NCBI GenBank assembly: GCA_050084515.1
Contig: CM114271.1
Span: 45,694,001 to 45,758,000 of the forward strand
From: Blasia pusilla
Taxonomy: Eukaryota
DNA length: 64,000 bases
Direction: 5' to 3'
The translations under genes were made by a program, and so were the position numbers. The notes under the pieces are model-generated. The model was not told the DNA's origin. It was given only the letters and a program-made list of their open reading frames with translations, and did not search any database. This document shows, in pieces, positions 851 to 64,000 of this stretch (position 1 is the first letter of the stretch; the number at the start of each line of letters is the position of its first letter).

Positions 851-862
851 AATGGGGAGGTT

Positions 863-4229: not shown

Positions 4230-6304
4230 CATGCTTCCCAAAGTTGTATAAGAGTCTCTGAGAGTCTCACTTAAAAATTTTCGTAACCAAGTTGCCTCTC
4301 TGAGAGCTCTAGTTAGAGCCATGTACTCTACTTCAGTAGTGGATAGAGCAACAAATTTTTACTTCTTGCTTCCCCAGCATACAGTTGCGTGTCCTAACAA
4401 GAAACAAAAACCAGAGGTTGATGTTCGATCATCCTGATTACCTCCCCAATCAGCATCAGAGTAACCATACAATGGTTCTAGGTTGTTTTTCCTAGTGCAC
4501 ACAAGTCCTAAGTTTGTTGTCCCTTTTAGATATCTAAAAATCCTTTTTAGAGCACCCCAATGGGCTCAACGTGGTTCAACCATATATCTAGAAATCATAC
4601 TCACAGCAAAAGAAATGCTAGGCTAGTACAAACCATTGCCCATATGAGACTACCTCTTGACGTTTATAAGGTATCTTTCTCATGAAGCTTCTTTCTTCTT
4701 CATTCTCTAGAATCCTTTCTTAATAGCTTCTTCCCAGATTCTACTAGTGTTTCTCTGAGTTTTGGGTGACATTTTAAACTTTTCAAGTACATTGTTGACA
4801 TACCTACTTTGAGATAGTCTAATCCATCCTTCCTTTTGTTCCTAGTTACTTCCATTTGAAGGAAATGATGGATTTCTCCTAGATCTGTCATTCTAAACTC
4901 CTTTTCATTGAGTCTTTGACAAATATTAGCAATGGTGTACAATTACTAATCGATCAGCGTCATCTACGTATATAGGGCAAATTCAACAAAATATTCCTGA
5001 TCATTCGGGATGTAAAATTTGTGTCATTATCACATCTCGAAATCCTATTTTGATCAGAAATCTATCCATCATTTGATACCACAATCTTGATGACTATTTA
5101 AGTCCATAAATGGACTTGTGCGACCTACAAACTTGATCTTGGCAAGTAGGATTTGATAGCCCCTCCTGGCATCTCCATGTATACTTCCTCCTCAAGTATA
5201 CCATTCAAAAATGTTGTCTTTACATCCATCTTATGTACTTCAAGATCAAACTATGTTGCGGAGCAAGCATAACTTCGGATTGAAGTTTTTTACTCTGAGA
5301 TGAGAATGGCTCAGTGTAGTCCACACCATAAACTTGTGAGTAGCCTTTTGCTACCAATCTTGCTTTGTACCTTTCAATGCTCCCATGTGCCTTGTACTTT
5401 ATTTTGAAAACCCATTTTACATCCCACGGCCTTTCTACTGGTGGGAGTGAAGTGAATGACCAAGTGTTATTCAACCTCATGGATTCAAGCTCTTATTCCA
5501 TTGCATCCTTCAAAGAAGCGCTTGCTGCCCAGAGAGCTTCTTCATAGGTCTCGGGTTCTTCAATATTGTTATGCTTCTCTTGTTGACTCATTAACGCTTG
5601 AGTCAACTTCTCCATATCTGGAGTCCTTGCGTGTGATTCTTGATGTCTTTGCATCATATTTCTGCACTTGCCTTGAAACCCTTTCAGATCTTCTTGGTCT
5701 AGCACTCGCTTGTGTTGGAGTTTTGTTGTTGGACTCTATTTGAACAATCTGTGGCTCCTTTTGAACTTGTTCTCATGCAACATCAAGAAAACCACTCTCT
5801 GTTGGAATCTCACTAGCACTCTTACTAGTACTTGGAGTGCTCATACGTGATGTTAGTACATCTTTTCCTTCAGTGGTAGTCAATGCTGGAGTTGGTAAGG
5901 CTCCCACTAAACTCGTTCCCCAAGACTCCAGGAACTCAAACAAGGAATGGTCCTCCTCTTTACGCAAACCAACAAATGCCACTTTTCCCTCTTGGAATTT
6001 TACATCCCTAGAAGTGGTGATGGTTTTGTCAAATTTCTTTTGCAACATGTATCCTTTTCTTTGCTCTTCATAACCAAGAAGAATACATTTAGTTTTATGA
6101 TTTATGATTTTACATCTAGTTTTCTCCTCTGAGAAGAAGGAATTAGTGCAAAAGCTGTACACCAAAAAATTCTATTGTGACTAAGATCTGGAGGCTCTCT
6201 GTACCAAACCTCATATGGTGTCTTAACACCCTCCAGAGCCTTTTTTGGTGATCTGTTCTACAAATAGTTTGCTGTCACTATTGCTTCACCCCAAAAAGTT
6301 TTCG
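4230..6304 (-). mobile_element. Degenerate Ty1/Copia internal fragment (integrase end, RT, RNase H start)
   Basis: KTFWGEAIVTANYL, KCILLGYEEQRKGY, KWVFKIKYKAHGSIERYKARLVAKGYSQVYGVDY, MTDLGEIHHFL and GYSDADWGG. No LTRs recognised. Confidence 0.9.
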
Positions 6305-8345
6305 AGTGACAAGCCAATCTTCCGACGACCCTACAAGTACAATGACATGGAGAGGGTTTTGATTCTGAGTAGCAGCCAAGACTTGGTCGGAGCAGACTAG
6401 TGGAGATGTTGCATGGAGAGTATGCATCTGTCATTGTCATGCCCATCAAGAAGGATGTGCATGGAAACTGGACGGATAGGTGGATGTGTGGAGATTACCA
6501 ACCTATCAATCGATAGACAAAGTTCGATAGGTATGCCAAGCCTACCCCTAAGGAGATCTTTGATATGATTGGGCATACAAAGATCTTCAATTCATTGGAT
6601 TTGAGAGCCGGATACCATCGGCTACCTATCAGATTGGAGGGGCGAGGCGAAGACGGCATTTTGGGGCATTGATCCTCACAAGAAGGATTGATTGTGCCAC
6701 TGGTAGCTCTTACCATTCGGGTTAAAGAACGCCCCGGCTGAGTTTCAGAGGATCGTGGATAGGATCTTGGCATGTCTTGATTTTGCTAGATGTTACATTG
6801 ATGATGTCGTGAGGTTTTAGTGCCACGGTTGAGGAGCATGACGACATCTAAAGGAGGTGTTTTCGACGATTGCATTTACATGGGATGAAGCTACATCCAA
6901 ATAAGTGCAAGTTCTTCTACGACTAGATTGAGCACTTGGGTCATCGATATACCTGGGGGCCTTGGTATGCAGCAGATGAAGATAGAGGCTATTTCATATT
7001 TTCCACGCCCTACAGATGTGAGTCGAGTTTGTGCATTCATGGGATTGGAAAACTTCTATTGACGGTACGTCAAGGGTTTCTGTTTGATTGCACCGCTAAC
7101 CTTGCTAACCAAGGTGGATTAGGAGTGCACTTTGAGGGGGATGAGCAAGAGAGAGCATTTAATTTGCTCAAAAGATATATTGGCGTCTGTGCCCATATTT
7201 AGGGAGATTGATCGGTGGGCGTCATTTCGGTTGCATGCCAATTGGATCATGTTGGGGCTTGGAGTGTGCTCACCTAGCATGACGATGATGGTAGAGAGTT
7301 TGTGGTGGCTTACGCTAGTCAATCAAACAATGTTGGAGAGGCAAAGTATAGCTTGTATGAGGATGAGTGCTTGGCGGTGGTGTGGCGATCATAAATTTCA
7401 GTCTTATTTATTGAAGCCCCTTACCATCATTACCAATCATCAGCCACTTAAGTTGTTGATGGAGTCCGACATGCTTACAGGGAAGCTTGCAAGGTGGGCT
7501 CTTTTGTGCAGGAGTATAACTTCCAAGTGATGCATAGACCTAGGATGCTCAACTAGGATGCACAAAGTTTGAGCCGTAGCCCATGCTCGAGTCAGCGAGA
7601 TGCGATTGGAGCTTGTTGGCATGGTGAGAGTGATGAGGAGTTGATGCTAGGATGGCGGCGTCGCGCCCCTATTTGGGCATGTTGGCTATGAAGAGCCAAG
7701 TTGTTGAGACTTTGGTTGCGAGGTCTGATGGAGAGTCCTTAGATCCAGAGGCTGGTGAGGAGACGATAGGTGGCCGAGATATTCACGACGAGGGAGTAGT
7801 CTTTGAGTACTTACGTACTGGCATCTTCGCGAGCAGAGTGGGTGCTAGAGAGCAGGATCGGATCCTACAGCGGGCAGGCGGTTCGGTGGGAGGAACACAT
7901 GTGTTGCAAGTTTGGGAGGATGGTAGAGTGTGTGTAGTGCCTCATCCGCTGCGAGAGCACATTTGGTACATCATGCCCACGAGAGTTGGGTCATTTTGGA
8001 GTAAAAAGGACGTCTGACTTGCTCCACATATAATATTGGTGGCAAGGCATGGAGACGACATTCAACAGTTGGTTGTCGGATGCATGGTGTGTGATCGAGT
8101 CGGGCATCGTTCAATGCTCCGACTCACACTGCATCCACTTCCGATCATGGGTTTAGGTTATAGATGGAATTTGGATTTTGCAAGACCTTTACCTTTTACA
8201 TAGCGTCAAAGTTCTTATGTATTGGTGATGGTGAGCACTTCTCGAAAGTGGATAGAGTTGGTTGTGAGGATAGCATATGGCATGTGTGAGGCCACCTCTC
8301 ACTAGGGTTCTTAAGGGATGATGGATGTGTTCTAGATGTACATAG
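6300..8345 (+). mobile_element. Ty3/Gypsy pol fragment: RT, RNase H, integrase N-part, then after a deletion the PHD-finger C-terminus
   Basis: DKPIFRRPYKY, GEYASVIVMPIKKD..GNWTD..MCGDY, LDLRAGYH, YIDDV, TNHQPLK..LTGKLARWAL and HPLPIMGLGYRWNLDFA. 8270-8345 matches the PHD tail at 49770-49850. Confidence 0.9.
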
Positions 8346-13000: not shown

Positions 13001-13409
13001 GAGGGTGTGGAGCTTGAATATCATTCTTCAGTACTCAATTAAAAATTTTGAAACCTCACTTAGGGTTTTATTTTTAATTCCTTCTATGGGTGGTCATTTG
13101 GAGATTTTGTATGATGCGGAAGTGTATGTTCCATCAAGGTTTCAAGATTTATGGGCTAGCGTAAGAAGAGGGAGTCAAAATGTCGAAGAAAGAGGAAGAT
13201 GAATGATGTAGGAGTAAAGGTCCAAGTCTCCTTTGAATTTCCTTTGGTCTTATCCATGTATCCGGAGCTCCCATCTTGGATGGACGTGAAACAAGAGGAT
13301 ATGGGTTTGCCAATGCCCTATTGCCCTTGGAGGGTATGGAGCTTGAACATCATTCTCCATACTTAGTTTGGAAACCTCACTTAGGGTTTTTTTATTTTTA
13401 ATTCCTTCT
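10090..13409. repeat. Tandem satellite with ~325-345 bp units, left arm
   Basis: Landmark gggtggtcatttggagatttt recurs near 11751, 12077 and 13088, with variants near 12404 and 12753. Diverged units lie further left, with ttagccccca.ctcata at ~10296, 10617 and 11286. Confidence 0.9.
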
Positions 13410-45747: not shown

Positions 45748-48700
45748 TATTGAAGATTGAGTTACAATCAAGCTCATGAGACACCTGAACTGCTACATTT
45801 TGGTACTCACAAAAAATAGGGAAGCTTAATCTTGGTTAGTCAGTTAAGCACGATCATCTTAACTAGGGTTAGTTAATCACAATTAGTCTAACTCAAGACT
45901 ATGGTTAAGGATAGTGTTAGGGTTGATTGCACAAACCCTATATAATTGAGAAGAGGACCAGCCTATACTCATTCTCTCATTGCAAATTTCGTTCTCCATG
46001 GTGGTGTGTGTGTGAGAGCCATTTTCCACCAGTTATGCTTGTTTAGCAATTTTCCATATGATATCAGAGCGAGAGGGGAACATCACTTGAAATTCTTAGT
46101 GTTTGAAGAGAGAAGAGAGGCAAGAGAAGGAAAAATTCCAAGAGGAGGAAATTTTATTCAGAGCTCAGTTGGTGCAGATTTCAGGTGGAGCTTTGACGGT
46201 GATAAAACTTTGGAGACATTTTTTAGGGCTTTCCCGGTCGATTCAACCATCTGGGGCCGCTTCGGCTAGAACGACAACAAAGGCTAGTTCTAACCATCCT
46301 ATACAACTTGTTGAGAGCTTTCCAACGTACCCAAAATTTCTCAATTTTGATACTTTGAGCTCTTATGTAGCAATTTCAGTGTAGGAAAGTGCAATTAGTG
46401 AAGAAAAGTTGTGCAATTTGCTCTCTACAGGCCAATTTTGACTAGTTATTTCATTCAGTTGATCAATTTTGGCAAATTTCAGATCGATTTCTATGTAGGA
46501 GTGGTCTATGCTTCAATTGGAGCAATAGAAAGCCTAAAATTACATTTTTATGAGTAAAATCATTTTTGATGGAATATTCCTCAGCAACAATCACAAGCGA
46601 GAAGCTAGACAAGCAAAATTACAATGTTTGGAAGTTTCGCATGAAACAATTTCTCATGGGTCAAGAACTATGGGAGCTTGTCACAGGTGATGAGGCCAAG
46701 CCAAAAGATGACTCAACAGACTTAAATGTTCGCGCTTGGAACAAACGCGCAAGGCAAGTAATCCACTACATTTCAATAACGATCAGTTCGCCAATAATAG
46801 GTCACATCCAAGATGTTGATATTCCGAAGGAGGCTTGGGATGCATTGGAAAAGATGTTCCAAACATCTACAAAAGCCAGAAAGCTTCAATTGAAACAAAA
46901 ATTGAATGAAGTGAGGAAAGGATCGGAGAGCATGAATGATTATATTTTGAGTATCAAACATATTGTTGATTAGTTGAATAGCATTGGAGTGACAATAGAA
47001 GATGATGATCTGATTTTATTCACTCTTCAAGGCCTTCCAAAAGATTACAAGTCCATTGAGATCTCTATCTCTGTGAGAGAGAAGTATCCAACCTTTCAAG
47101 AGTTAGTTCCTCTGTTAATCAATGAAGAGATGCGCCTAGTAGGAGCGGTAGCTCGTCTAGTCAAACAAGAGAGTGCGCTATTTGGGTTATGGATCAGCAG
47201 AGGGGGGGTCGTGGAGAAACTTCCGTGGTCGTGGTGGATATCAAGCATATGGAGGAAGAGGCACTCAATATAACGTCACTCAATCAACTACGAACCGATG
47301 CAGACACAATCACAAGGTGTTGATGGTGGAAACCGTTGGGGTCGAGGTCAACAACAGATGGTCCCTGGATCTTGCAATTACTATGGGAGAAGGGGTCACT
47401 ATGCAAGGTTTTGCTTCAAGAAGAAGGCAAATATGAGAACATGAGCCTTACAACAACAAAACTATGTGGAGCAACAACATCAAGAGCAATACCAAGAACA
47501 ACAACATTCACAAACGGAGCATCTCTTGGTCATGACTCATCATATGGGAGCAATGGTCAAGAAAGACTCGATAATAGATTGGTACATGGACTCTGGTGCA
47601 TCAAATCATATGACCTCACAAGCTAAATGGTTAAATAGTTTGGAGTCGATGAAAGATCCTGCAATTGTGCTCACAAGAGATGACACTCAACATCATATCA
47701 CGTATATCGATAAAGTTCCAATAGCATCGATGATCTTTGTGCTCTTGGAAATGTTCTCTATGTTCCTACCATTGCAAGAAATCTCATCTCTATAGGACAG
47801 ATATTAGAACAGGGTTATCAAGTGAAGTTTAACGTAGATGGTTATTTCATTGAAATAATGGATGACCAAACTACGATAGCCAAAGGAACTAGATCTGGCA
47901 GAATGTTCAAATTAGATGTTTCTATGCTAGAGATTCAAACAACAATGTATGGTCAAACCGGCCAACAAGTCACAGATCTAAATGTGTGGCATAAAAGAAT
48001 TATACATATGAAACTTCAAAGATTATAGAGTCTTTCATCATCTAATATAGTTATAGGACTCCCTAAATTAGCGAGTCCTGTTACGTTAGAGCTATGTCCT
48101 CCTTGCTAATTTGGAAAACAAGCTAGATTTCCTTTTCCAAAGCAAGGTAGAAGAGCATCCAAGATATTCGAGTTGATCCACAATGATGTGTGGACAACAT
48201 CACAACATAGCCTTAGTGGTTCCCAGTACTTTGTTTCATTTATTGATGACTTCTCTAGGTATATATGGGTATATTTTCTGAAGGCCAAGTTAGAGATATT
48301 CTCAATGTTCTAGTAGAGAAGCAGACTGGACAACACATTCTGAAATTGCGTTGTGATGGAGGAGGATAGTATCTTTCAACAGTGTTTGATGACTATTGAA
48401 AGATAAGTCACTTGACGTTCGGATGGCATCCAACGTCAAGTGACTTGCCGTTACACTCCACAACAAAATGGAGTGGCTGAGAGGAAGAATCGACATATTG
48501 ATGAAGCGGCACAAGCTATGCTGAATGAGAAGAACATGCCTAAGGTATATTGGACAGAGGTTGTAGCATGTGCAGTCTTCTTAATCAACCGAACTCCAAG
48601 AGTAGGAGTTCATGATAAAACTCCATTTGAAGTCTTCACACGAAGTAAACCTGATTTTTCCTTCTTGAAAGTATTTGGTTGTATTTGTTATGCTTATGTT

Positions 48701-48806
48701 CCTTTTGAGAGACGTAAAAAATTAGACCCCGAGTCTGAAAGATGTATCTTCATTGGCTATGCTGATGGAACTAAGGGAAATAAGTGCTACATTCCATCCT
48801 CTAGGC
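45748..48806 (+). mobile_element. Second copy of the same Copia family, 3'-truncated within integrase
   Basis: LTR 45748-46058, PBS tgatatcagagc, gag, WYMDSGASNHMT and integrase. Colinear with 13410-16480. Stops at attccatcctctaggc, where a Gypsy LTR begins. Confidence 0.93.
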
Positions 48807-50280
48807 TGTCGTGCGCATACACATCGTTACACAACATACATCGCTATCATCGAGCACACACACAAACACGCACAATCCCATACTAACTCATGGCATCCAA
48901 ACAACGAGACAAGAAGTACCAAAATATCTCCAATTAAAGTAAGATCCAATCTCTCTCTACACAATCTCACACCATAGCTCTCAAAGGTGTGCACTCTCTC
49001 TCATGTCAAACCAAACCTACTCTCCTAATGAGAGGCTTGGATAACACTCACAAGGCAAGGGACCATAGCTCCGTGGCCTCATGCCAAGAGGTTCAACAAA
49101 GAGAGAATGAGCTCTCAAGCTCTCTCTCCTTGGGATATATAACCCCCTCCCCTTTCCCAAGCTCTCTCCATGGTAACCTATTCTCCCAAGTCACCTCCTT
49201 GGCTCTTGACCTGATGTAGGAGGTCAAGGGCCACATACCAAAAATAGAAAGTTGATCATATACTCCAAATGGTACTTACCTAAAATAGTAAGTTTCTCAA
49301 TATGGCTCCAAATGAGCCAAAAACGAAGGGGAAACTGCTCTCTCAGGTTTCCCACGGCCTCAGCATGTCATCATCAACCTGCTAGGCCTGTCCTCCACTA
49401 CTCTTGAAGACGCTTTACTAGATCTTACCGATCTATCCTAAAGGACGTGACAGCTGTCGTGCACATACACATCGCTACACAACATACATCGTTGTCACCG
49501 AACACACACACAAATACGCACGATCCCATGCTAACTCATGGCATCCAAAACAACGAGACAAGAAGTACCAAAATATCTCCAATCGCCCCCTTAGCTGGTG
49601 GTTAGGTCCCTCTAACTCCAGATAGCCATCTATCCCTACCTACCATGACGTACATCTCTTGGACGCTAAGAGCAAGAAGGTCCGGTGCTCATGTGGCCCC
49701 ATCGTTAGTTGCCTTCCTGTCATCCATGTCAGAGAAAAAGTCGGGATCGAAACCTACCTAATATCTCCTCTATGTACATCTTGGACACATCCATTGTCCC
49801 CGAGGAACCCTAGTGAGAGGTGGCGTTAGACATGCCATATGCCAACCTCTCGAATAACCATCACAGACTAGCATCGTGGTCGTACCACGGGCAGAACCAC
49901 ACAACATACAACGCAAGCCTAAGCTCGGATCCACTGTAACATCAATGTTAGGAAGGTGACATGGTGCACAATTATGCACATGGTCCTTCCATACCATACC
50001 ATCGCGTTCCTCCAGCAAGAGAACACCAGATGGCAAAACGTAACACACTCTCAAGATAGTGCGCCCTACAGTCACATCCAACGTCGTCGGTGGCGTCTGC
50101 TGCAAGTAGACATAATCTCCTTGATAAAACCTCCGGATAGTTGGTCGATAACCACCATCCCAAATAGTTGCATACCTCAACGTATCTCGATGCTGCGCAA
50201 TCGCCAAGTTCTCAAACGCCATGGGCATCACTCTTTGAAACAACTCAGCCCTCTGAGAACATGCTCGCATCCATACATTT
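48807..50280 (-). mobile_element. 3' end of a PHD-Gypsy: integrase tail with PHD finger, 3' UTR, extra U5-like block and LTR
   Basis: ORF 49770..50309 has AFENLAIAQHRDTLRY and ends CMLC..MLVCDGYSRGWHMACLTPPL..VPRGQWMCPRC. U5-like block 49455-49582. LTR 48807-49452 (TGTCAC...GCACGACA). Confidence 0.92.
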
Positions 50281-53189
50281 GAGCACTTGCATTTTTGTCC
50301 CATTGTCATCCACCACCCTCAAGGGCATTCCATCTCTCCTCTTTGGCCTTTCCCAAAGATATTTATCTTGTAGTAGATAGCCATACGTCTTATGTCGAAT
50401 CTCCTTGAAGAACTTATCTGTCCATCCACCTTCTCTCTGCAGAGTGCTTAAATAGCGCCTAATTTCTTTCAACTTGCCCTCATACAAATTCTCTTTGGAG
50501 GCTAGAGCATTCTTTATGCCACCCTGTTCTTGCGATGACACTTGCCATACATATGCATCATCCTCATCTATCTCAACTGCCTCCATATTTTCTTCTTGAC
50601 TAAATCTAGCTCTAGGCAACATGTCAGCTACTGAGTTCTCTTTTCCAGCTATATGCCTCAATTGTGGATTTAAGGACCTAATGTAGGCTATCCAACGTAA
50701 CATGGCTATATCTGGAGTTGCACAATTTGCAATCATTCCTAACAGAGGTAGACAATCAACTTCATGCAACATATAGGCTCCCATAAGATACTCCTTCTCA
50801 ACTTTCATCGCAGTCACAACTTCCCAAAGCTCCCTCTTTACCTGAGGGTACCTCCTTTTTTGTTCCGTGAGTGTACGAACTCCAAACCTTGTCGCAAATC
50901 TTCTTCCTTCTACATTATCGTGCCCAACTGCCCACCCGATAGCAATGGGGCTAGTGTCTACTGTGATGATAATAGGTCTTCCACATTCGTAGCTCATTTG
51001 TCATAGAACCGGTGGCAACTTCAATGCCTCCTTTGACTACATCATTGCTGCTCTTTGCCTCTTCTCCCAAGTGAACTTCTTCTTCTTTCTCAACAACTCA
51101 TACAAAGGATCAGATATGTGGCCAAAATGAGGAATCAACACCTCATAAAATACATAAGCTCCTAAAAACCTTCTCACTTCGGTGACATTTTTGTATCCTC
51201 GTATCCTCCCAATGACATCAACTTTTGCTCGATTTGGTTTTCGGCCAAACTCTCCACAAAGATGACCCACTACCACAATCTGAGGAATCCCAAAGCTACA
51301 CTTTTCTCTAAAAAGAGTAAGATTGACCTCTTCTAGTCTTGTTAGGATCATATCCACATCACAAATATGATCAGACACAAACTTTCTACATCCATCTTTC
51401 ACAACCCTCTCAATCCTATCTTCTATTGCACATCCCTTTATAAGAATATCATCTACAAAAGGAATAGTTTTCTCAGGAATGAACTCTCTCAAGATCTTAT
51501 TCATTGCACCCTTCATGTGAGCGATAGAATTTGTTGCTCCTTGAGATAATGTGCACATTCTTACAAGCCCAAGTGGATTACGCATACTCAACTATGTGCA
51601 ATTGTGAAATTTACCATCGCTGCCACCACACTTGTGTCTACACAACCAATTTCTTGTGTAGTAAAAGAGAAGGCCTTACCATATCTCCTTAACATCTCCC
51701 GAAAGCTTTTTCTTTCAATTTATGTGAGAAACTCACCCCCTCCAATTTGCAGACAATCTAGCATACATCCCACTAATGAACTCTTCATCTAATAGAACAC
51801 CCTCATATTTTAACAAACCTTTCTTCTTTTTTTCTTCATAAAACGTCTTTTCTTTTCATTCATTTCTTTCATCATTTGGAATCTACTAGACCACAAAGGA
51901 AAACATTGAGAAAACCCACACCTAAACATGTATGATTCTTCCCCCTCTACTAGCGGAATGCTCTTTCTTTTCTCTGCACCTCCATATTCCCGCTCTACAA
52001 GAGTACTAACTAAAAATCCGAAAACTTTTTCTCTACCTTCATAGGACCATCTCTCAACTTCTCTCTATTCCTTTCATAACCTACTTGTACAGTAAGGAAT
52101 TGAACTGAACTCATTCCATCGACTTCACGATATTTAATATAATGAGACCCATCATCCATGACTTTGGTCTCCATTCTAGATGCTGTGATATAAGGTTGCC
52201 CAATAATCATAGGATAAGCAGCTCCATTCTGAACAAAATAATTTTGCTCAATCAACACATCTCCCATACGAGTTTTGACAGTTGGACAAACACCGTAGAG
52301 TTCACTTTTTGGGTTGTTAGCTGCATGTAGTACCCATCCATGCCTTGTATCAATTGGCCACATCCCTTTGTCGTATACACTTTGTGACATAATGTTGATC
52401 TCCGAACCATGATCAACGAGAGCCAAAACTGACTCTTGGAGAGAGCCAAGTCGAGTTGTAGCCTTCGTCGTTGCACACGCCCAATATGACCGAGAATAGT
52501 GTCCACCATTGTGCCTTTCTTCACCTTGTTCTGTCAAGGCTTCTCCTACTCTTGCCTCTTCTCCTTGTAAGTCAAGCTTTTGTCCAAAAACTTAGCAAAG
52601 CTCTTCATCTTCTTCTTCTGTAATGTCAGTATCCAATGCCCTCACCATCACCATATCTACAGTCATCTACCTTTTCCTTTTGATCACATTTATGATCAAC
52701 TCATGAAAGTCACGTTTGGCTATGCCCAAGACTTCCCTTAGAGAAAACTCTATTTTTGCATCCAAAACCTCTCCTCAAGAATCTCCTTCAAATTTGTGCT
52801 TGTCTATATATCAGACTGCAGCTTGTATGTAGGAGTCTTACCCTGGTCTTCTAAAAACACCTCAATTCATTTTCCTTCATCCATGCTTTTTTGACATTAG
52901 AATCCCTCATAGATTTAGGTGTGAAAGGTCCTTCTTCTCTTGATGGCTGCGCCTCGGGTTTCCCTTTCTTTCTTGCGGTCCTCGCTCTTCTTGCAACTTC
53001 CTCAGGATCAACACCATCATTGTCGCGTCTCCTCTTCTCCTCCACACTAGCATCTTGCCAGCTCACATGTTTCTCTTGTGCTAGGTATGCTTTAAAACAC
53101 CCAACTTCCATTAGATCATCCCATCCAGTCAGATGATGGATAGTCTATGCCCCTCGTATAATTAATTCTAGAGGAAATTGTAATGATTC
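50280..53189 (-). mobile_element. 3' part of Gypsy element 'G': gag end, protease, RT (partly deleted), RNase H
   Basis: TGWDDLMEVGCFKAYL, protease LALVDHGSEINIMS, RT FVDDILIKG and RNase H TVDTSPIAIGW...KRELW...VDCLPL. Confidence 0.9.
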
Positions 53190-56100
53190 CACTAGTACAA
53201 AAACTCCCTCTAAATGACTTAGAAAAATGACTAGATGTTACTTAAACCGGGCATGTGTGACTAAGTAATTACTTAACCAGACTCTAGTAATAAAAATTAC
53301 TCCTATTCGTATAAGTTGTTACTAAAACCGAAGGTAGTCAAATCTAAGTCTCTTTTTTGTTACTCAACATAGTCACTAAATATGACTTGACCTAGTCAAT
53401 TTTTTATGACTAGACAAGTCATAAAGAATGACTTTTCTAGTCATAAAGAATGATTGGACGAGTAATAAAGAATGTCTAGAAGAGTCATTAGGACTGACAA
53501 GACGATTCATTAAGAATAACTAGATTCATTAAGAATTGACTAGACGAGTCATTAATAATGACTAGGCGAGTCATAAAGAGTGACTTCTCACAATAATAAA
53601 TAATGACTTCATGCGTCATAAAAGAATAACTAAGAGTCATTAAAATGACTTGTCCATGTCATTTACAATCCTATTCACTAAAAATATCCAAATAACAACT
53701 ATACCAATCATTATGTATGACATATCGCATTATTGCTGACAAAAATATGTACATGAAATTGGCATTTTTGTCCATTTTGTATCCATGAATATGAATTACT
53801 CCTTCATACCTATCCTCCCTACATCTATCACTACTTCTCTTACATCCATGCAATGGAGATGCCATTATGTATCTATTGTACAGTCCTAATGCTACCAGCA
53901 TTGTGTTAAAACATACGAGCACATTACTCATATACCAACCCATCCATGTTGTAGCATCTGATCATATCACTTTTTCACAGTAAAAAAATCCTTATCTGTT
54001 GAAAGATACATCTAGCAAATGTTTCTTACATCCAATTTTGGCCATAAGTCCAAAGCTACAAAGTGTATCCATACATCCTGAAATGGAATATTTTCTTACG
54101 TCAAAAGAATGCCTAGTGAATTATAGTGAAAGATGGTCATCAATGGAAGAACACAAAATCTACTTCTCAGTGCAAACTCCCCCTCTAATATTCTCAAAAT
54201 TGAGACATCGAAATCCAAGTACATCTCAATTGTCACACTCAAAACTGAAACACAAACATCAAGTTCCTCTACTTATGAGCACAAAAGTTACAAGTATATG
54301 GAGATCGCCACACTCAAGAGGGATGTCAAAGGGAAGGTTTACTCAAAAATTATACACACAAAGCGAAGGTGCCCCTATTTCTGAGAAGGCATAACAAGAT
54401 GAGATGGCCATAACACTACACTATCAATGGCATCTCCAACATAAATCTATGGTGGATCGTCAGCTATATTTGGAAATGGCAATACATTTTTCTTCTTGCA
54501 GACCTCTCTCAAATGGAGAATACAATGCCCATCTGGAATGTCACGTTCTTGGAAAGTAGAACAACCATCATGCAAGTTGCCATAACCTACAACCACAGAG
54601 GGGTTCTCACGTGATATTAATTGCTGCAACGGAGGCACAACAGATTTCAACACCGGCTTGGTAGCTTCTCGGGTCCTCTTCCTAAGTGTCGCTCTTCTCA
54701 CCACCATTGGCTTTTGCAGAAGATCCAAATGATCCTATTCCATGGGTCCACCACTCCCCAACATCCTTGCACTATCTTCATTCTCCTCTGAAAATACCGT
54801 GGCCTCCAAATTGCATCTCCGCGATGTCCTCACTTAGCGTTTGCATACAATGGCCGGGGCCTCATCTGTGGTCTCTACAATCACAATCAACAAGAAACTT
54901 TAACTACCCTTTCAAACAGATCATGATTTTCAGCAACTTCAATGTAAAATGCACAAAATCACTCTAAACTCACATACCTAAACTCAAAGGGTCACCCACA
55001 AACACAGTAGCATTAACCTCTCTTGTGCCTCACTTTTTCTTTGGACCAGTTGGTGCAATCCCAAAAATTGTATCTAGTCCTCTTACTGTATGAACACCCT
55101 TGGCAACTTGTGGAAGGACTAGAGGCGAAGGCACAATAGTGATAAGCTCCGGAGAGGGTGCACTCTCCCTTGAAGGTGGTCCGGTGATTGGGTGAGGAGA
55201 GGATGCACTCAACGGCATAGAGGCAAGTGCTCCACTAGGAGCAGGGTCTCGATCATGAACTCCACGAGGAGAGGATACAACTCTTGGATTTTCCGATCTC
55301 TCCTTGGAACCCCTCATGTCCTCATGGTCCCTTCTCAAGCTCATGGAAATTAATTCCATCAACTTTGTGAAGTTCTCTTGTTGATTAGCAACAACAGTCT
55401 TTATGCTTGCCTCTAGCACGTCCAAGCTGCTGGAGAATGCATCCATGCGATCAATTATGTAAGTCATAGACTCGGGAAACAACTCCTCCATAGACTTTAA
55501 TCGGGCAGAGATCTCTGTTAGCTCAGATGTTCCTGGCACCTGAAATACAAGACTTGGATCTTAGTCTATATCAGTAGGCTTGTACTAGAAATACACTAGA
55601 TTCACTTCTACTCTAAAGCAACCAGATGCAAATACCTGCTTTGACACTCTACTTATACCATAACTCCTTTGGTTCTTTGCCTCCTCATGCACCTATGCCT
55701 TAGTAGGGGTTTTCCCCTTCTCTTTTCTCTACAACACATGTTACACCAACCAAGTTCAGTCTTCCAGACACCAATTGCCAAACTATATGCATGGTGGTAA
55801 TAGAAATTAAAGATGGGTCCTTCAATATTATTCATACCAAGTGCTTTGCAATTGGTGCATTCCCTTTTCTTCCTCGTTAGGTTTGATTGGTCACACTGCC
55901 GTGCTTTGGACATCTTCTCCCTCTTTGTCTTTGCACTCTCGCTCATGGAGTGCGTAAGTAATCTTCCCCATTGGTTGGGGTCTACATAAGGTGGTGGGGC
56001 CACTTTCTTGCCTCCTCCAGCTTCTTTCCATGTCTGACGCAATCTAAATCTCTCCGTCTTGAATATTCATTGTGCATATTCCTCCAAACATGGAACAGCC

Positions 56101-59100
56101 ACTCCATTGTTTCCAACATACTCCCATCTAGCAAAAATATCACTCAACACCGAATATTCCAATACCTTGAGTGTTGGTCTGAGAAATTCACAATGGAGAT
56201 GTCAAGCCATCGCAACACCTCGACTCTAAAATCTGCATGCCACCTATTCTTTCCTTCTGAAGTTGTGGTGATCCAACCAGAGTTGTTCACACCCACTTTT
56301 CCGACCTTCACCCCCTCGCCTTGCACACTTCTCTCAGTCAGTGAGTTTGGTGTGTATGTTGTTCCTACGCTTGCCCGTCGCAAGCCTAGAGTCGTAGAGT
56401 TTGCTGCACACATGAATATCTTCAGTCAAGACTACTGCCCACTTTGCAAATCTTTATGCCTACAAACAGACTCTATGCATCGATGTCAGGTCACTTAGTA
56501 ATTAGTAAAGACACGAGGAAGAAATTCTCCAAATAGGGATGATACTTCTCTATATATATGTGACTTGCTATTACCTGTAGCCTTTGTCATTTGCACTCCT
56601 TGAGTGGGTCCTAGCCCCAACCATTGAGGTTGTCCATACATTTTTTGAGTGCTATTATTGAGTCCATAAAGGTATTGGCTACTTCCAAACCAATCTTGAC
56701 TATTTGGCACCGCATGATAGGGTCCCTCGGTGTAGTTGGAGAATCCATCTTGCATAGAGTCTACACATGACATATATGTCGGTGTAGTATAGACACATCA
56801 CACAACCATCATCTAACGATGTATAATCAAAGAGAAATTTGAGATTGCAAATCGATACATTCGTACTATTCCACCCTTGCCTCGTTGGATAATATCCATT
56901 GTATAACGAACTTGGCTTGGAGTTCTATGCATAGGGTCCATCTCTACCGCCTTGAGACATGCTTGCCTGTCCCTCCCCACTATATTGTACACCCACTTGC
57001 TCTTTGAGAGGAATACAAATTTCAGGTACACGTCCGGGTGCAGCATCCCTTGCCCAAGTAGCTTGCCCCCCAACTGTCCCTTTCTGCCAATGCAATGCAA
57101 CCCACTAATTAGAGACAATTTCTTTCAAATGCCACTAACCTTGAAACACAATTGTAGACACACGTCCTGTCTAATTGAAATGGAGAAATTACCTGCTTCT
57201 TCTTTCCCCCAATAGTTGATGGACAAGGCTCCTTAGGAGCCGGAAGCTCATCTGAGCCTGATTGATCCTCTTCACCTAAGTCTCCAACAAACTCAGGATC
57301 ACAAGTGGAAGATTCTTCACCTCCAATGTAGCATCAATGTCACCAAAAGATTCTTCCATCGCTGCCAATACCTTTTCAAGCAATTGAGAGCTCCTCCGCT
57401 TCGGTCCAAGATGGAGAGGCTCCCTCTTTGCAGGTCGTGGGGCACGTACTTGCTTAGAACAAGCCTCCGCGCTGCACATGAGGACAAGTTTTTCAAGAAT
57501 ATGAATTATGCACAATGCTTCTGATTTATTCATAAAGGCCCAGACCTAAGTGCTCAATATGTCAAAGCTTACAATTCAACGCCTCTTTGTTTGAGTTCTT
57601 CCGCCAATTCCTTAAGGTATCTGTTCACATAAGCCGCGCGGGCCTCCACATTAAGTTCATCTACAATATGGATGTTGCCTTCCCATCTTTCTACCCTCAT
57701 CAATGGTACATACTGACTACCGACAACTGTGACCGGTTGAATCGTTCTATTGGGAGCTTCAAAAGCCCTATGTCCATCTAAACTGAACTCCAAAGTATTA
57801 CATGATACCCTATGATTCCTCGCCTACTTGTAGCACACTACTCGCCATTCGGGCGATTCTTCCATGTCTAGGAAGAAAGCTTGTTCAACCTGACTAGGGA
57901 ATACAAAAGGTTCAGACCATTCAGGTTGCATTTGCCTGAAGTTTGCTAGTAAGAATCCATCACTATCACGCTTCATTGTAGCCCTAGCCCCACGCCAATC
58001 TGGTCGCACCTAAGTCCCTTTCATGAGAATGATAGGATTGGATGTGTTCCCGTAGTCCAATTTCCAAAGGTCAGTTAGCTCTCCTATGTATCCCATTTGC
58101 ATCCATCCTCTATCTTGGTGATTGCTCATTTGCTCGAATAAAAATATCAACCCTGAATCATATGTGACAAAATGATCATCACTTTGATCTACCACACGGA
58201 AGTGGTTTCCATAGGCTTGCATTCTCTTGTAAGCTAAGATGGCCATTCGAGGTGGAGCAGACAGAAGGTAGACATCCCACTCCATATTTGGGTGTAGTGC
58301 TGAATGCTCTTGGATTGCCAATCGAATCCATTCAGTGAATGGTGGTAAGCCCCCCGCACCACCCCCAATATGTGCATTTTTCTCCATATTATATTTCATG
58401 TAGAGGTCATGCCATTATTAGTCGACTGGTATCTGGTGAGCTACGACATAAAAAAAATAAGGAAGCCAAATAAATGCAACAACACATAGGCTTGAGTCAT
58501 TCAACCCCTTACTTACCTCACCATGGTTGCATTACTCTAGTGTTTTGCAACACATATTCATGAGCCATCTACCAAATATTTTTCGGCAATTACAATGGGG
58601 AACCTCTGCCTTGAAGAACTTCACCTAACGTTCCCTCATCTTCCTCCGCTTGCCATATCCTGGCCTTCACATGTTCAAACCCCGCTATATACTCTATCAA
58701 ATATCCCAAGGTCTCGTGCGAAATGTAACCCATTGCCATGCTGGCCTCAGGCCTTTATCTTGTCAAGACGTGGTCTTTCAAGACTTTCATAAAATGCTCC
58801 AGTGGGAACATCCACCTCGTATAAATAGGCCCGTACTATCCAAGCTCTTCCACAACATGGATAACGAGATGACTCATGACATCAAAGAAGGCGGGAGGAA
58901 AATGGATCTCCAAATCGCAAAACAATTCTGCCACATCATCTTTGAGCTTGAGAAAGCTTGCTGGATCAAAGACCTTCACACATATATGACCAAACACCTT
59001 GCACAATTGCATGATTGCATTACGAATCGGCTTCTGCATCAATCCCCTTAAGCATACAGGCAGAATCTATTGCATAAGCACATGATAATCGTGTGTCTTC

Positions 59101-60467
59101 ATACTACCGAGTTTCTTGTTTTTTACATGCTTTTTAAAGGCAACTGCATAGCCGGTCGGAGCTCTCTAAGATTGAAGCCTCGAAAGAATTTTTTCCCACT
59201 CTATGTCTGTGCAAACATAAGGTGCCTGGTATTTCAATACCACATTGGGTATGGTCTCATCATCCTTCAACCACAACTGAGAACGTATTCTCCTCTCTTG
59301 GAGATCCAATCGCACCGTTGTTGTGTCCTTCTCCCCAGAAAGGAACCTCAATAGGCTCTCGCATACATTTTTCTCAATATGCATTACGTCTAGATTGTGT
59401 TTGCTAGGGTCGAACCCCTGTTAAACCACATATGACAACCATGAGTACAACTGGATGATACACGAGCCTCAATTCTTGAAAGCATCTAGTGTGGCAAATA
59501 ATAAACGTTGCGTAAGAGCAGATGGGTGACATAGATTACCCTCCAGTAGTCCAACTCCACATCAAGTATGCTCTTCCGTTTCACACCATATCTCTGTCTC
59601 GGATCCCGTTGAGCATTTGGAGCTTCTGTATCTTGGCATTCTAGTCCCCCCTCTAAACCCCCACCTGTGCCTCTTTCCATGTCGTACATGGTCTTTTGGT
59701 GTCCCCAATCGAGAATCTGCTCTTTAGTGACTCGTGGAGGTGGACCACGAAGCTCTCGGGCATTGTTGAATTGAACTATCTATGACGTCCTATATCTGTA
59801 AGGATGATCTAATGGGAGGAAACGTCGATGTCGAGTGTATTTCATGCTCCTCAAAGGTTTGGAATGCTCACGAGTGAAATTGGGGCCACATGCAGTACAA
59901 GCCAAATACCCCTTTGTTGCTTGACTAGAAATCATGTCGTGGGCTGGATAATCTCCCAAAGTCAATACCAATTGGGCTTGTAGCCTAAATGGGTTTGGTC
60001 TCCCAATCTGTTGTACCACATCATGGATCCAAATGCCTTTGTACCACAAGCGCTTCAACTCATCCACAAGAGGAGCTATCCAAACGTCTATATTCCTAGA
60101 AAGAGCAGATTGTGGGCCCGGGATTAGCAAAACCAATAAGACAAAAAACTTCTTAGTATTCAACCACGGAGGGAGGTTGTAATTTAGCATGGTTACAAGC
60201 CAGCAAGAATATACATTGTTCTTGTCTCCGAATGGATTGACTCCATCGGTCGAGAGGCCAAGTCTCACGTTCCTTGTCTCTCTTGCAAACTCTGGCCATC
60301 TCCGGTTGATGAATCTCCAATGTTCTGAATCTCCGATGTGCCGCTGCAGGCCATCGATACTCTTATTCTCGGATGTCCAAGTCATCAACTTTGAAATTTT
60401 TGGGCTCCTGTACATCCATTTCAATCTAGGAATGATTTCAAAATGTCGAAGTACCTTGGTAGGCTGC
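53190..60467 (-). mobile_element. CACTA (En/Spm) transposon, 3' portion
   Basis: TIR CACTAGTACAAAA at 53190-53202. Dense ~20-bp ATGACT/AGTCAT subterminal repeats to ~53670. Transposase genes read toward this end. Confidence 0.92.
54420..57533 (-). pseudogene. Second CACTA gene (TnpA/Ptta-like), spliced and decayed
   Basis: Downstream of the transposase inside the TIR. PPPYVDPNQWGRLLTHSMSESAKTKREKMSKAR resembles the plant En/Spm Transposase_24 region. Exon structure not resolved. Confidence 0.55.
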
Positions 60468-60469
60468 AT
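57560..60469 (-). pseudogene. CACTA transposase (Transposase_21/TnpD-like with DUF4218/DUF4216-like regions), N-terminus missing
   Basis: KVLRHFEIIPRL, RNVRLGLSTDGVNPF, NYNLPPW, LLIPGP, GDYPA, MHIEKNVCES, FPPAFFDVMSHLVIH and PFVFPSQVEQAFF. Introns and premature stops. Confidence 0.92.
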
Positions 60470-63400
60470 GGATACGGATCCCTAGACACTTCATTGTACC
60501 CAAATCTTGCATGCTAAATGCAAAACAACTCCTTTAACTCCCAAGGAACTGGTGTATCTGGCGTCGCTCTCCTCCTGTCAACTTAGGGCCCATATCTGGC
60601 TCCCAAGTTTCCATCGTGACTACGGTAGGACTCTCATGCGTGCGTGTTGGTTGTTGCTATGGTGCAACCCCATCTCGCACAACAGAACTCTCAACTCCAC
60701 GTGCAATTCCTGCAACCATGCTCGATGCTGTGACTACCATCTCCTGGCGTACTTGCAAAACATCCCAAGAAGTCCGAGGGTGTCTCTCCTGATCATCCCT
60801 AGTGTGTCAATCTCCTTGAATCTCGCCCCCAGTCACTGACTCAACCGTCTTGGTAGGCATTGGACTCACCAACGCAATAGCTATGATCCGTCGCATCCTC
60901 AAACGATGCTACTCACCTACGCTTAAGCTAAAAATCCAGGTCAAGAGTTCATGTCCATTGCGTGACCCAAGACATGACGTCGCAATGCCTCTGATAGTGA
61001 TGGTACTACCGTCACTCTTATGGGACTACCTCGTCCAACACTCGATTGGCCCTGACACGGCCAACCAACAATGACCAAATCTATGGCCCCTCCCTGCTCC
61101 AAGTCCTACGCTCCCAACAATGAAATATCCCTTGGTAGGGAACTATATTATCCCTCGACAAGGGATGCAGACAACAAGTAAGGAAAACGGAGACGTAACT
61201 ATGCCAAATGGTGAAGTGAAGCACGCATTGCAACATCATCAATCTCCATGTATATATACTGATGCACGCGCACTCCTACCTACAAAACAACAGCTAAACG
61301 AGTGCTGATCCCTCCAAAGAGATCCAACACCCGAATATCCTCCTTTGGAATGCGCCACACAATGGGTGTGGTATCCAAGGGCGTCATCATAGCACTCTCG
61401 GTTATCTCGGGTTTTTCTGACCCATTACGCTTTGGTGCAAACATCTCGCTCCACGCGGTCTGCACATGCTCACTGGCTAAGCATCAAAGCTCCTTCGTCG
61501 AGCCCCAAAGCGGCACCTCTCCTCCACGGACTGACCATCGCACCCCTCTCCATAACAATGTCAAGAATGAGAGTATCCTGTGCATGGACATGTCCCTCAA
61601 TCAAATCACTAGGCCAAATGATGGCGCTGCTAAATGCTGTTGAGGTTGCCATCTCTTATGGTTGGCGCTTCATCACTGCACTTGTGAATTGAACGGGTAA
61701 TGAGATAAGGCGCCCATCACCTGACTGCCATCTTGGTTTGTAGGATGCTGAATCCTCCTAGTAATCTAGGGGAAACCCCATCGGGTACAACACTGCTCCA
61801 CCAACCAAGACGTCGTAGGATTCTAGATCGGTCACTACCGCCTTGGCTCGCACCATGGACTCATCTATAGGGTGTCCGGGGAGAATCCTCACCACGACCT
61901 CACGTCGGGTGATATACTGTGTGGTACTCGCTATAACCAAGGATGTTGGTATCTGAAATGGACAACACTCCACATCGACCCTCATGAGGCCAAAACCTCT
62001 GAATGCCGCTTTCCCCAACATTAGGGGTTGCGCTCTTGAATCCAACAAGAAGCGTTGCAAACCAAAAGCTCTATCTCGTGGACTCACGAACTAGAAGACC
62101 TCTCCCCAACTTTACAGCAAAAAAAAACCAAGAGAAGCCATGGCACTCTCTATCATGGGTCTAGCGGGCATCTCTGCCATCCTTGCAGCCGCAGCCTACC
62201 ATGAATCTGACATGGATGGCCCAAGCATCAGCTCCAAGGGCAGGTCCAAGACCTCCTCTATAATCACCTCTAAACGTGATGCAGAACTCCAACTCCATGC
62301 TCACATCGCGTAGCAGCCAGCCGGAAAACCTTGACAGGCATACCTCCCAACGTCTTTACACTGGAAGCAAAAAGCAAAGGAGCGCGGTCCACAATACTGG
62401 CCACTCCTAACAACATGCTCGACACATGCTCCTCCTGAGCATCACCAATAGGAGTCGTTGCACTCCCTTCTCCCATTGCCCTACATGCCTGCACACCAAC
62501 AACATCACCAACTCTCCGAGAACTCTGATCAGGACCCATCGATGGGGTCCTCATCGCCTCGGACAACGTGAAGGACTGAGGAAGCCTCGTCTATTTCCTG
62601 GCTTCCCTTCGCTATGGTCCAACTCTGCGCTGCTCCACAAGTAATAATTGCATCGGCCTCCATGTGGGCAACCTCGCACATCCAACCAGGATCCTCCACA
62701 TCTCTCGCGGCTCCACAAGACGTCGATGCCATAGATTTGGCATCGGGTAACCTCAATGCCATAGCATCAATATCTTTCTTGAGATTTGTTTTATCGAGCA
62801 ACCATCCCGACCACATGCCTGGAATCCTCGACGCATCTAGGTGGTTGGACTCTACCTCCTCCATGGGCAACTCCACCATCCCCTTGGATGAATCCAACAC
62901 CTCGTCCCCCAATGGGACCACCTAGTGCACGACCTCTGGGCCCACCCTGACCGGGAACTCACTATGGTGCCCTTTCAGGCCCTCGATCTAGACGTAACTC
63001 AAGGTGCAAGCTGAAACACCTAGAGCATGTGTGATCGTACCTCGATAATAGTCACATTGATAACCTTATTATGCAAAGACCATCTCCTCCTCTATCCGAG
63101 GCACGCAACCATGACCCTCACGAGTGCACTCATGATGATGATGGGCTCCACCACATGACCAACAAATAATTGTAAGCGGCTGCTGTTAAGCCGCATATGA
63201 AGGTGCAGGTCTCTGTGGCATGGCCTCCCGATATCCTCCCCGATCTCCCTCGCACACGTGTCCACAGGGTTTGGTCCAACTTTGCGTACCATGACTGGAT
63301 AGCTTGAGCCTCTATCACCCCTTAGTGAAGTTAATCAACCAATGCAAGTGGGTGTAGGCCTCACGCAAACTCTCAGCCGGGCGCCTCTAGAAGTTGTGAA

Positions 63401-64000
63401 TGCTCCACAACTTCTTCGTCCGTACCCCGTGGTAGCTCGCCCTCAACTCAACGAAGAACTCAACCACGAGGTTGAACCAGGGACGAACTCGACCAGACGA
63501 TGCAAGTGCTCTAGTGCTAGTCAGCCATTGTACAACATCATTGGTGGAGGAACTCTCTCCTGACTCCTGCTCCTCACCTCGAAATGGCTCAATCCATGAC
63601 ACATAGTGTGGATCATAGTAGAGTCTCCATGCCTCAAGCTCATGGGCATATCTCTGCGAGAGCTTATGGTAGTCGTCCATGGGTGCCCCCTCTAAATGTT
63701 GGAACATTCGGTTCCATGCTGTAAATGGGTTGAACTCTCAGGAGTTCCTGGCCCATTGTGAGTCACACCAACTTCTAAACTCCTCAATGAAGTCGTGTAA
63801 CTCTATAGTGCCTATAGCACCCAAAAATCCACGCGGTCCTCTACCCCTCACTCAAGGAGTTATCCAAGAAAATTGGAAATTTCACTCACACCTTGGAACG
63901 GTGGCTATGGCAGCCCAACAAAAATGATCATAACTCCATGCTTCAATCTCCAAATCATGTATTTCTTCCATAACGTACACCACTTCCTGATCTACAACCT
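60468..64000 (-). mobile_element. 5' half of a Ty3/Gypsy element: gag, protease, C5-methyltransferase and pre-RT linker
   Basis: gag-like FQHLEGAPMDDYH. Protease FLLDSRAQPLMLGK...YDVLVGGAVLYPMGF (61758-62087). MTase motifs follow. Then CFAFSMQDLGTMKCLGIRIH (~60530-60468), typical of the segment just before Gypsy RT. Confidence 0.85.
60930..61345 (-). pseudogene. DNA (cytosine-5)-methyltransferase domain within Gypsy pol, internally deleted
   Basis: A single frame reads IRVLDLFGGIST (motif I), YIYMEIDD (II), PRDISLL (III), IDLVIVGWPCQG (IV, catalytic PC at 61055-61060), then P.RVTVVPSLSEALRRHVLGHAMDMN (IX/X-like). Four in-frame stops. Motifs VI-VIII are absent. Confidence 0.85.

Follow-up and report, generated by a model that had tools for sequence, protein, structure and literature searches.

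A DNMT3-type methyltransferase remnant in a probable Ty3/Gypsy-type relic of Blasia pusilla, and its relatives in bryophyte and algal polyproteins

Background

Plants silence their transposons mainly by cytosine methylation, and a transposon with a de novo methyltransferase of its own reverses that logic. Whether land plants harbor such a transposon is the question raised by a locus of Blasia pusilla, which lies in a stretch of 64,000 nucleotides (assembly GCA_050084515.1, contig CM114271.1, positions 45,694,001 to 45,758,000 of the forward strand; this whole stretch is called the window here, and all positions below refer to it). An earlier note, made from the letters alone, had read on the minus strand a Ty3/Gypsy long terminal repeat (LTR) retrotransposon encoding a C5 DNA methyltransferase inside pol, between the protease (PR) and the reverse transcriptase (RT). 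We find that the stretch from 63842 to 60462 is very probably the decayed 5' half of a Ty3/Gypsy-type LTR retrotransposon with a DNMT3-class Pol domain, and a dead copy, and that relatives of this element share the proposed layout. Elements of this kind are now found in land plants, namely in the window genome, Marchantia, Calypogeia and Sphagnum.

The kind itself is already published. According to de Mendoza et al. 2018 (PMC5890265), KnitGypsy-Dnmt3 of Klebsormidium nitens carries an unrearranged Dnmt3 inside the open reading frame (ORF) of a Gypsy Pol and is under purifying selection, and Symbiodinium possesses two further retrotransposon-borne C5 methyltransferases, SymbioDIRS-Dnmt3 and SymbioLINE-Dnmt, the former of which encodes a Dnmt3-class enzyme with de novo activity on CG. 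What is added here is the presence of such elements in land plants.

The methyltransferase remnant

Reading the minus strand from 61483 to 60938 in one frame, through four internal stops and a terminal one, gives a peptide (DIRVLDLFGGISTRLAVVLxVGVRVHQYIYMEIDD...LVIVGWPCQGQSSVGRGSPIRVTVVPSLSEALRRHVLGHAMDMNS, with X for a stop) in which the peptides quoted in the earlier note are indeed present. We searched this read-through (P0001) against 5.8 billion proteins and obtained 21 matches, the best with E 1.3e-44 and 47% identity over 99% of its 182 residues. All 14 matches that carry an organism name are from bryophytes (10 from Marchantia, three from Calypogeia and one from Sphagnum), and among the named relatives the nearest, 47% identical, comes from the liverwort Calypogeia fissa. 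In a phmmer search of the PDB, 29 of the 31 matches listed were DNMT3A, DNMT3B or DNMT3C, with DNMT3B as the best (E 6.8e-5). Judged from these sequence comparisons, the match of the remnant to a DNMT3-type domain is far beyond chance.

The N-terminal half of the domain occupies 61025..61519 on the minus strand, contains five stops and is 48% identical to residues 818-984 of P0011, a polyprotein of Marchantia. It comprises a conserved lead-in, motif I (VLDLFGGIS, 61330-61304), which is a SAM-binding motif of the F-x-G-x-G class, a motif II-like YMEIDD (61252-61235) and motif IV (GWPCQG, 61066-61043) with the catalytic Cys; the text up to motif IV is ...LVIVGWPCQGQSSVGRG. After motif IV the read-through continues with four odd residues, SPIR, and then with VTVVPSLSEALRRHVLGHAMDMNS. 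These four residues are all that the window has in place of residues 984-1165 of P0011, so that 182 family residues are lost at a deletion junction (SVGRG-SPIR-VT, 61010..61042, minus strand), and with them motif VI, motif VIII, the target-recognition part and motif IX. In P0011 the missing piece includes ENV at 1017, HRARLWW at 1056 and ERERAMGF at 1155, and the family keeps these motifs. What follows the junction is a motif X remnant (VTVVPSLSEALRRHVLGHAMDMN, 60947..61015, minus strand) in the frame of the N-terminal half, 65% identical to residues 1166-1188 of P0011 and 74% identical to P0002; within it, LSEALRRHVLGHAMD at 60997-60953 aligns with ...RRQVLGQAMD of the family. Since motifs VI, VIII and IX are gone, the window sequence is a remnant and no functional member of the family.

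The block that had been proposed at 60930-61345 therefore stands as a homology, although not in its start, because tblastn places the upstream limit at about 61519. The deletion of motifs VI to VIII was rightly seen and also takes most of motif IX, so that of the motifs IX and X that had been read at the end only X survives, with no usable IX. As for a "DRM-like" spacing of the motifs, this was wrong: in DRM enzymes the motifs are circularly permuted, with VI-X before I-V, whereas here the order is unpermuted, as in DNMT3.

The surrounding remnant and its decay

Ten relatives, and then five more, were compared with the window by tblastn, and their gag, PR, DNMT and pre-RT linker parts matched the minus strand collinearly from 63842 to 60462, over 3.4 kb. 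Along this strand the order is gag, a CCHC-like knuckle, a middle part, the protease, the DNMT half, the motif X block, a linker and the pre-RT linker, and the collinearity extends across both the PR-DNMT and the DNMT-linker boundaries. The gag remnant (63250..63842, minus strand), with two in-frame stops and one frame change, matches residues 9-210 of P0011 at 45-62% identity and residues 69-268 of P0091. It is followed by the remnant of a CCHC-like zinc knuckle (CWSCGGAHHHHEC, 63126..63164, minus strand), a domain that P0031 and P0132 carry in their gag part as Pfam zf-CCHC.

The retropepsin region (61548..62261, minus strand, five stops) is 44% identical to residues 565-805 of P0011, and its core, 62057-61686, is matched at E 1e-16 by residues 774-896 of P0031, which include the Pfam Asp_protease_2 domain (774-859). 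Retropepsins have D-S/T-G as their active-site motif; the active-site text of the window, LLDSRAQ at 62048-62028, has DSR in its place. Beyond the methyltransferase, a post-DNMT linker (60759..60971, minus strand, two stops) continues in a different frame with 39% identity to residues 1181-1243 of P0011, and the element ends with a pre-RT linker (...SCFAFSMQDLG...GIRIHAA, 60462..60605, minus strand), 52% identical to residues 696-743 of P0021 and matching also residues 885-1012 of P0041. The protease and linker blocks that had been described on the two sides of the methyltransferase were thus both found, while the RT assumed to lie downstream of the linker is absent, and a CACTA transposase stands there instead.

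The copy is dead, as had been supposed. Of the 903 aligned codons in the matches, 17 are in-frame stops, and the matches run through the frames 2,1,2,0,2,0,0,2,2 with at least five frame changes, lack the 182 residues and break off at 60462. Of the four internal stops in the read-through, three (all TAG) fall at positions where the relatives have Gln, which fits C-to-T decay; the observed/expected ratio of CpG amounts to 0.64 for the element, compared with 0.53 for the window. Stops, frameshifts, the 182-residue deletion and the lack of an RT downstream leave the window copy unable to produce the enzyme, and the locus is a relic without present function. Among sequencing runs, five DNA data sets share only 6-11% of the sequence words, and no RNA data set is listed as sharing them.

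A recurrent layout in bryophytes and algae

The layout of which the window keeps one half is complete in other proteins. The clearest case is P0132, a single ORF of 2188 residues from an environmental contig, in which Pfam recognizes zf-CCHC (530-547), PR (796-888), DNMT (978-1226), RVT_1 (1421-1575), RNaseH (1638-1766) and an integrase (1895-2061). Uninterrupted ORFs of 2138-2327 residues occur in the clusters of P0132 and P0159 (P0254 with 2327 residues, P0259 with 2138). P0021, from Marchantia, has DNMT at 460-529, RVT_1 at 833-919 and RNaseH at 997-1098, and P0031 combines zf-CCHC (387), Asp_protease_2 (774-859) and DNMT (1071-1159). The Pol order protease, RT, RNase H, integrase, with gag and CCHC upstream, was found in P0132 and P0021, and the window keeps gag, knuckle, PR and pre-RT linker in this order.

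Concerning the host range, a search with the region of the Marchantia domain retrieved 61 proteins, of which 18 are named: 15 from Marchantia, one from Calypogeia, one from Sphagnum fallax and one labelled as a Spirochaetia metagenome-assembled genome (MAG). Pooling both searches and two annotations, Marchantia has 16 clusters at 90% identity, and the cluster of P0011 alone holds 18 sequences. Cluster look-ups add Sphagnum jensenii, S. troendelagicum and six clusters from four strains of the zygnematophyte alga Closterium. Taking the protein sequences as evidence, the family is present in liverworts, mosses and the zygnematophyte Closterium. P0072 (838 residues; integrase, H2C2, PHD and the tail of the family DNMT domain) bears the label of a Spirochaetia MAG, probably because transposon DNA of a eukaryote was sorted into the bin of a bacterial genome.

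A profile built from six short domain-only ORFs and run against 1.84 billion representatives found 3345 proteins at E<=1e-3, 872 at 1e-10 and 233 at 1e-30. Custom HMMs for DNMT, RT-RNaseH and integrase were applied to 242 fetched proteins with a DNMT match, which were classed as type A where DNMT precedes RT, as in the window, and as type B where it follows RT-RNaseH or precedes the integrase. Nine proteins were of type A and 100 of type B, while 133 showed DNMT only. In type B, Pfam recognized in five proteins RT, RNase H, DNMT, integrase and then a PHD finger. This second, more diverse RT-RNaseH-DNMT-integrase-PHD architecture (P0043, P0052, P0062, P0116, P0137, P0183) occurs in many environmental contigs as well as in Scenedesmus sp. 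PABB004, and one of its clusters is annotated as "pol" of this chlorophyte.

The collinear polyproteins and the complete single ORFs show that the DNMT belongs to pol and is no one-off capture. The earlier note had regarded other copies lacking the domain as the case that would speak against a pol domain, and this case is contradicted by the layout common to the polyproteins of three bryophyte genera and Closterium and to the complete environmental ORFs.

Class, fold and conservation of the domain

The PDB profile and the fold, from which the class of the enzyme was assigned, were obtained with intact relatives rather than with the window remnant. In a PDB search with profile A1 the best match was DNMT3A (E 8e-10), and the first 29 of 33 rows were DNMT3A, DNMT3B or DNMT3C; further matches were 4onj (E 1.2e-5), which we take to be a DRM, DNMT2 (6.7e-4) and HaeIII (9.5e-4). 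The AlphaFold model of P0003, based on an alignment of 41 sequences, reached pLDDT 91.0 and pTM 0.89 (a model from six sequences only, with pLDDT 38.6, was not used). With this model, all matches listed by Foldseek (ranks 1-49) were DNMT3A, DNMT3B or DNMT3C, the best with E 2.4e-19 and a TM-score of 0.83 on the target, at 20-23% identity to DNMT3A/B. By sequence and by predicted fold, the family domain is a DNMT3-class C5 methyltransferase.

The intact members have the motifs I, II, IV, VI, VIII, IX and X in unpermuted order. A DRM-type permutation was considered as a candidate and is ruled out by this order, which is seen in the window and in the family alike; DRM enzymes resemble the family as distant DNMT3 relatives and differ from it in this respect. 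Host DNMT3 enzymes (animal DNMT3A/B/C and plant ones, such as MpDNMT3b) share with the family the catalytic fold and the motif order, and the motif VIII text AHRxR..W.N is common with DNMT3A. However, the element domain stands alone in its polyprotein, and by Pfam type A has no companion reader domain.

Across 152 family domains the catalytic positions are strongly kept. In motif I, F is found in 123 domains and the two G in 119 and 145; in motif IV, the catalytic Cys in 150 and Gln in 135; in motif VI, Glu in 151 and Asn in 147; in motif VIII, the two Arg in 147 and 150; in motif IX, Gly in 151; and in motif X, Gly in 150 and Asp in 147. The DNMT core of P0011 is 50-52% identical to those of P0031, P0036 and P0033, compared with 17-41% for gag, the middle part and the protease, while towards P0091 the core, at 72%, equals gag. 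In these alignments, conservation within the gag-PR-DNMT polyprotein is highest in the DNMT core. Conservation of the core and of the catalytic residues argues, indirectly, for selection on the element-borne enzyme.

The DNMT domains of P0011 (Marchantia) and P0008 (a Sphagnum cluster) are 68% identical and have short branches in the tree, which is high for so old a split. This closeness between liverwort and moss could come from strong constraint or from horizontal spread of the element.

Phylogeny of the DNMT domains

Two trees were calculated. The FastTree tree comprised 153 domains, after eight redundant rows (six Marchantia copies and two duplicates) had been dropped and the window row added. 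All 87 type-B rows fall into one clade of 105 rows (support 98) that contains no type-A row, and seven of the eight type-A rows fall into a group of 41 rows (support 85), the eighth, P0071, being a long-branch outlier. The other tree was a quick IQ-TREE analysis of 53 rows under a mixture model, with a random 22 of the 60 RDI rows and with the long rows P0071, P0233 and P0057 left out. Here the 22 sampled type-B rows all lie on one side of a branch (SH-aLRT 95), and all seven type-A rows lie opposite (84). In both trees the window row is inside a clade of Marchantia, Calypogeia and Sphagnum (17 rows with support 100 in FastTree, 12 rows with SH-aLRT 99 in IQ-TREE).

The type-B elements are related to the family of the window, yet distinct from it. 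Their backbone is likewise Gypsy, and their DNMT3-type domain is homologous, 35-42% identical to that of Marchantia (E 1e-42 to 1e-65) and with the same catalytic motifs. It is placed, however, after RNase H and before the integrase, which is itself followed by a PHD finger, and the type-B DNMT domains form a separate clade.

Weighing the identification

It should be noted that several observations weigh against this picture. Pfam PF00145, the profile that the earlier note had proposed as a check, is negative on the window copy alone (E 0.4, 10.5 bits, cutoff 22), although the phmmer searches confirm the likeness and intact relatives clear the threshold at 24.7-46.1 bits. In the gag, knuckle and protease pieces of the window Pfam finds nothing up to E 1, so that these pieces owe their names to their collinearity with the relatives. 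Residue 9 of gag already lies at 63842, so that the 5' end falls outside the 64,000 nucleotides, and the 3' half does not adjoin; LTRs, primer-binding site, polypurine tract and target-site duplication are outside the view. Within the 64 kb there is one DNMT-like stretch, and from this genome the comparison covers the window alone. Many Marchantia models end soon after the DNMT or are incomplete, with gaps at motif IV in P0023 and before motif I in P0021, and some of them could represent dead copies or artefacts of gene modelling. Directly before the catalytic Cys, where the bryophyte clade has Pro, 73 of the 152 domains have Pro and 68 have Glu; Glu occurs there in both architectures (type B: 47 E, 31 P), and Glu at this position is unusual for an active C5 methyltransferase. 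Both trees, finally, lack an outgroup and come from FastTree or from a quick analysis, and the type-A side reaches a support of only 84-85.

Two rival explanations of the locus draw on these points. Short motifs such as FGG and PCQ might resemble a methyltransferase by chance in transposon junk, as the E of 0.4 with PF00145 would allow; however, the E of 1.3e-44 at 47% identity over nearly the whole read-through, the PDB match to DNMT3B (E 6.8e-5) and the place of the window row inside the bryophyte clade, with support 99-100, make this exceedingly improbable. It could also be that a single copy took up a fragment of a host DNMT3, or that a host pseudogene lies beside transposon debris, and the single DNMT-like stretch in 64 kb would suit such a one-off event. 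Against it, the order gag-PR-DNMT-(RT) recurs in the 16 Marchantia clusters, in Calypogeia, Sphagnum and Closterium and in the uninterrupted ORFs of 2138-2327 residues, the window is collinear with the polyproteins across both boundaries of the DNMT, and the host gene MpDNMT3b is a different gene (Mp5g09290, according to bioRxiv 10.1101/2021.02.12.428880). A host gene fragment or one-off capture, which we regard as very improbable, was rejected on the recurrent layout and the collinearity.

Possible roles of the enzyme

In live copies, the enzyme would probably be translated within Gag-Pol and act as a de novo C5 DNA methyltransferase. More tentatively, and with less than even confidence, it might act on the fresh complementary DNA (cDNA) of the element or on its new insertion, so that the copy would enter the genome with host-like methylation. 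The model for this idea is a proposal for DNMT-carrying DIRS elements in PMC5890265. Self-methylation of the cDNA or of the integration site, which the earlier note suggested for the present family, had thus been put forward in that paper for other DNMT-carrying retrotransposons, and its Discussion leaves several roles for a retrotransposon-borne enzyme.

One of the alternatives is that an active enzyme works in trans on host chromatin, in the neighbourhood of the insertion or in the wider genome, or limits the element itself, rather than disguising its cDNA. Both ideas are raised in the Discussion of PMC5890265, and the PHD finger that the type-B sister architecture adds after the integrase suggests a link to chromatin state; type A, however, has no chromatin-reader domain recognizable by Pfam, and we hold a role in trans or in self-limitation to be rather unlikely. 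Still less probable is that the family domain is no DNA methyltransferase in vivo and serves in RNA methylation or as a SAM-binding, DNA-binding or structural module of Pol. This would agree with the Glu found instead of Pro in 68 of 152 domains and with the Symbiodinium LINE DNMT, which failed on DNA in yeast, RNA methylation being suggested (PMC5890265). On the other side, between 147 and 151 of the 152 domains retain the Cys, the ENV motif, both Arg of motif VIII and motifs IX and X, the nearest solved folds are DNA-bound DNMT3A/B/C and not DNMT2, and SymbioDIRS-Dnmt3, in the account of the same paper, methylates CG de novo.

Joining these parts, it is possible, although doubtful as a whole, that the PR-DNMT-RT Gypsy elements with a DNMT3 are an old streptophyte lineage (Zygnematophyceae, liverworts, mosses) still alive in bryophytes, with a working de novo enzyme that methylates newly made element DNA or, in trans, the host genome, and that type B goes back to the same single capture, the domain having then moved within Pol. 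That the lineage would still be alive is suggested by the 18-sequence Marchantia cluster (at least 90% identity) and by the intact long ORFs. If this reading were true, part of the de novo methylation of bryophytes would be transposon-encoded.

The question moves with these elements to Marchantia polymorpha, for which knock-downs, CRISPR deletions and bisulfite methylomes exist (10.1101/2021.02.12.428880), and the family deserves attention because live-looking copies are found in a tractable model liverwort.

Relation to known elements and host genes

KnitGypsy-Dnmt3 is like the present family in being an LTR Gypsy with an unrearranged Dnmt3-type domain in the Pol ORF, a streptophyte host and conserved key residues; its host, however, is Klebsormidium, against liverworts, mosses and Closterium here, and the two were compared by text description alone, as far as the accessible text of PMC5890265 gives it. 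No sequence named Klebsormidium was among the matches of the family protein searches and cluster look-ups. SymbioDIRS-Dnmt3 and SymbioLINE-Dnmt differ in their backbones (DIRS, with a tyrosine recombinase, and LINE) and in their dinoflagellate host, and their acquisition is described in the same text as independent.

Neither "Marchantia" nor "liverwort" is a word of the accessible text of PMC5890265. Two later sources, PMC12344493 and bioRxiv 10.64898/2026.05.21.726589, mention such elements in their accessible parts for "streptophytes", citing the 2018 paper. In the full-text literature, supplements and subscription papers aside, no Gypsy element with a DNMT turned up for bryophytes or for any other land plant, and the statement of the earlier note, that retrotransposon-borne C5 methyltransferases are described from dinoflagellate and charophyte elements and are no standard domain of land-plant Gypsy elements, agrees with this accessible literature.

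The bryophyte copies are already in public proteomes as hypothetical proteins. The element-borne models of Marchantia include Mp_4g09160, Mp_6g11220, Mp_8g17980, Mp_8g15430 and Mp_2g26090, and they are distinct from MpDNMT3b, which bioRxiv 10.1101/2021.02.12.428880 gives as Mp5g09290. The Marchantia methylome study PMC5784723 lists, in the part accessible, five host methyltransferases and no DNMT3. For annotation this calls for caution, as bryophyte labels of "DNA (cytosine-5-)-methyltransferase" may belong to fragments of a transposon Pol.

The break at 60462 and a possible displaced RT half

From 60481-60463 downward the sequence is that of a CACTA (En/Spm) TNP2 transposase, a neighbour outside the retrotransposon, which ends at 60462. 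The transposase is 5'-truncated; Pfam recognizes Transposase_21 (E 1.1e-58) and DUF4218 (E 1.3e-23) at 59516..60481 on the minus strand, and a search of all three minus frames of 55001-64000 with Pfam gave CACTA domains only. Six TNP2 homologues align from their residues 212-328 on, and the window match covers 60481-58521 only, so that the first 210-330 residues are missing. The CACTA transposase at 58521-60481 (minus strand), which adjoins the break directly, contains an intact ORF of 233 residues; its best unnamed relatives are 61-70% identical and its best named one, from Calypogeia fissa, 47%.

A degenerate RT-RNaseH-integrase (H2C2) fragment of the same family (Pfam RVT_1, RT_RNaseH and Integrase_H2C2) lies at 6296..8266 on the plus strand. 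It matches residues 741-1190 of P0021, with 72-73% identity in the Marchantia RT core, and residues 1010-1156 of P0041. This piece begins at 741 of P0021 and 1010 of P0041, and the minus-strand half ends at 743 and 1012; the two halves, 54 kb apart and inverted, fit within about three codons. Such a fit suggests one element split by an inversion or an assembly misjoin, and by its sequence 6296-8266 may be the other half of the element. A model of inversion with two breaks predicts the missing CACTA N-terminus just left of 6296; it was not found there, either with the six TNP2 homologues or by Pfam, which gave no TNP2 domain on the plus strand of 1-10001, and no DNA repeat links the flanks of the two halves. 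The split would go back either to an inversion with further loss or to a misassembly.

Other repeats in the window

At 1-800 (plus strand) the window holds the 3' end of another Gypsy, with a Tf2-1-like SH3 and a chromodomain, both under the Pfam cutoffs (E 9e-5 and 1.3e-4). An unrelated Gypsy RT-RNaseH-integrase, 25% identical to the RT of P0132, is found at 50172-51588 (minus strand); just downstream of it, the sequence at about 48807-49858 shares 78-88% DNA identity with 8266-9816 and with segments around 21.9-22.2 kb and 39.0-39.6 kb. Two arrays of a tandem repeat of about 330 bp, with units 60-89% identical, occupy 10198-13400 and 18690-20090. Two stretches of about 2.2 kb, at 14211-16385 and 46545-48711, repeat each other in direct orientation with 87-92% identity at a distance of 32.3 kb; one element present twice, or a very large nested structure of which they are the LTRs, could account for them.

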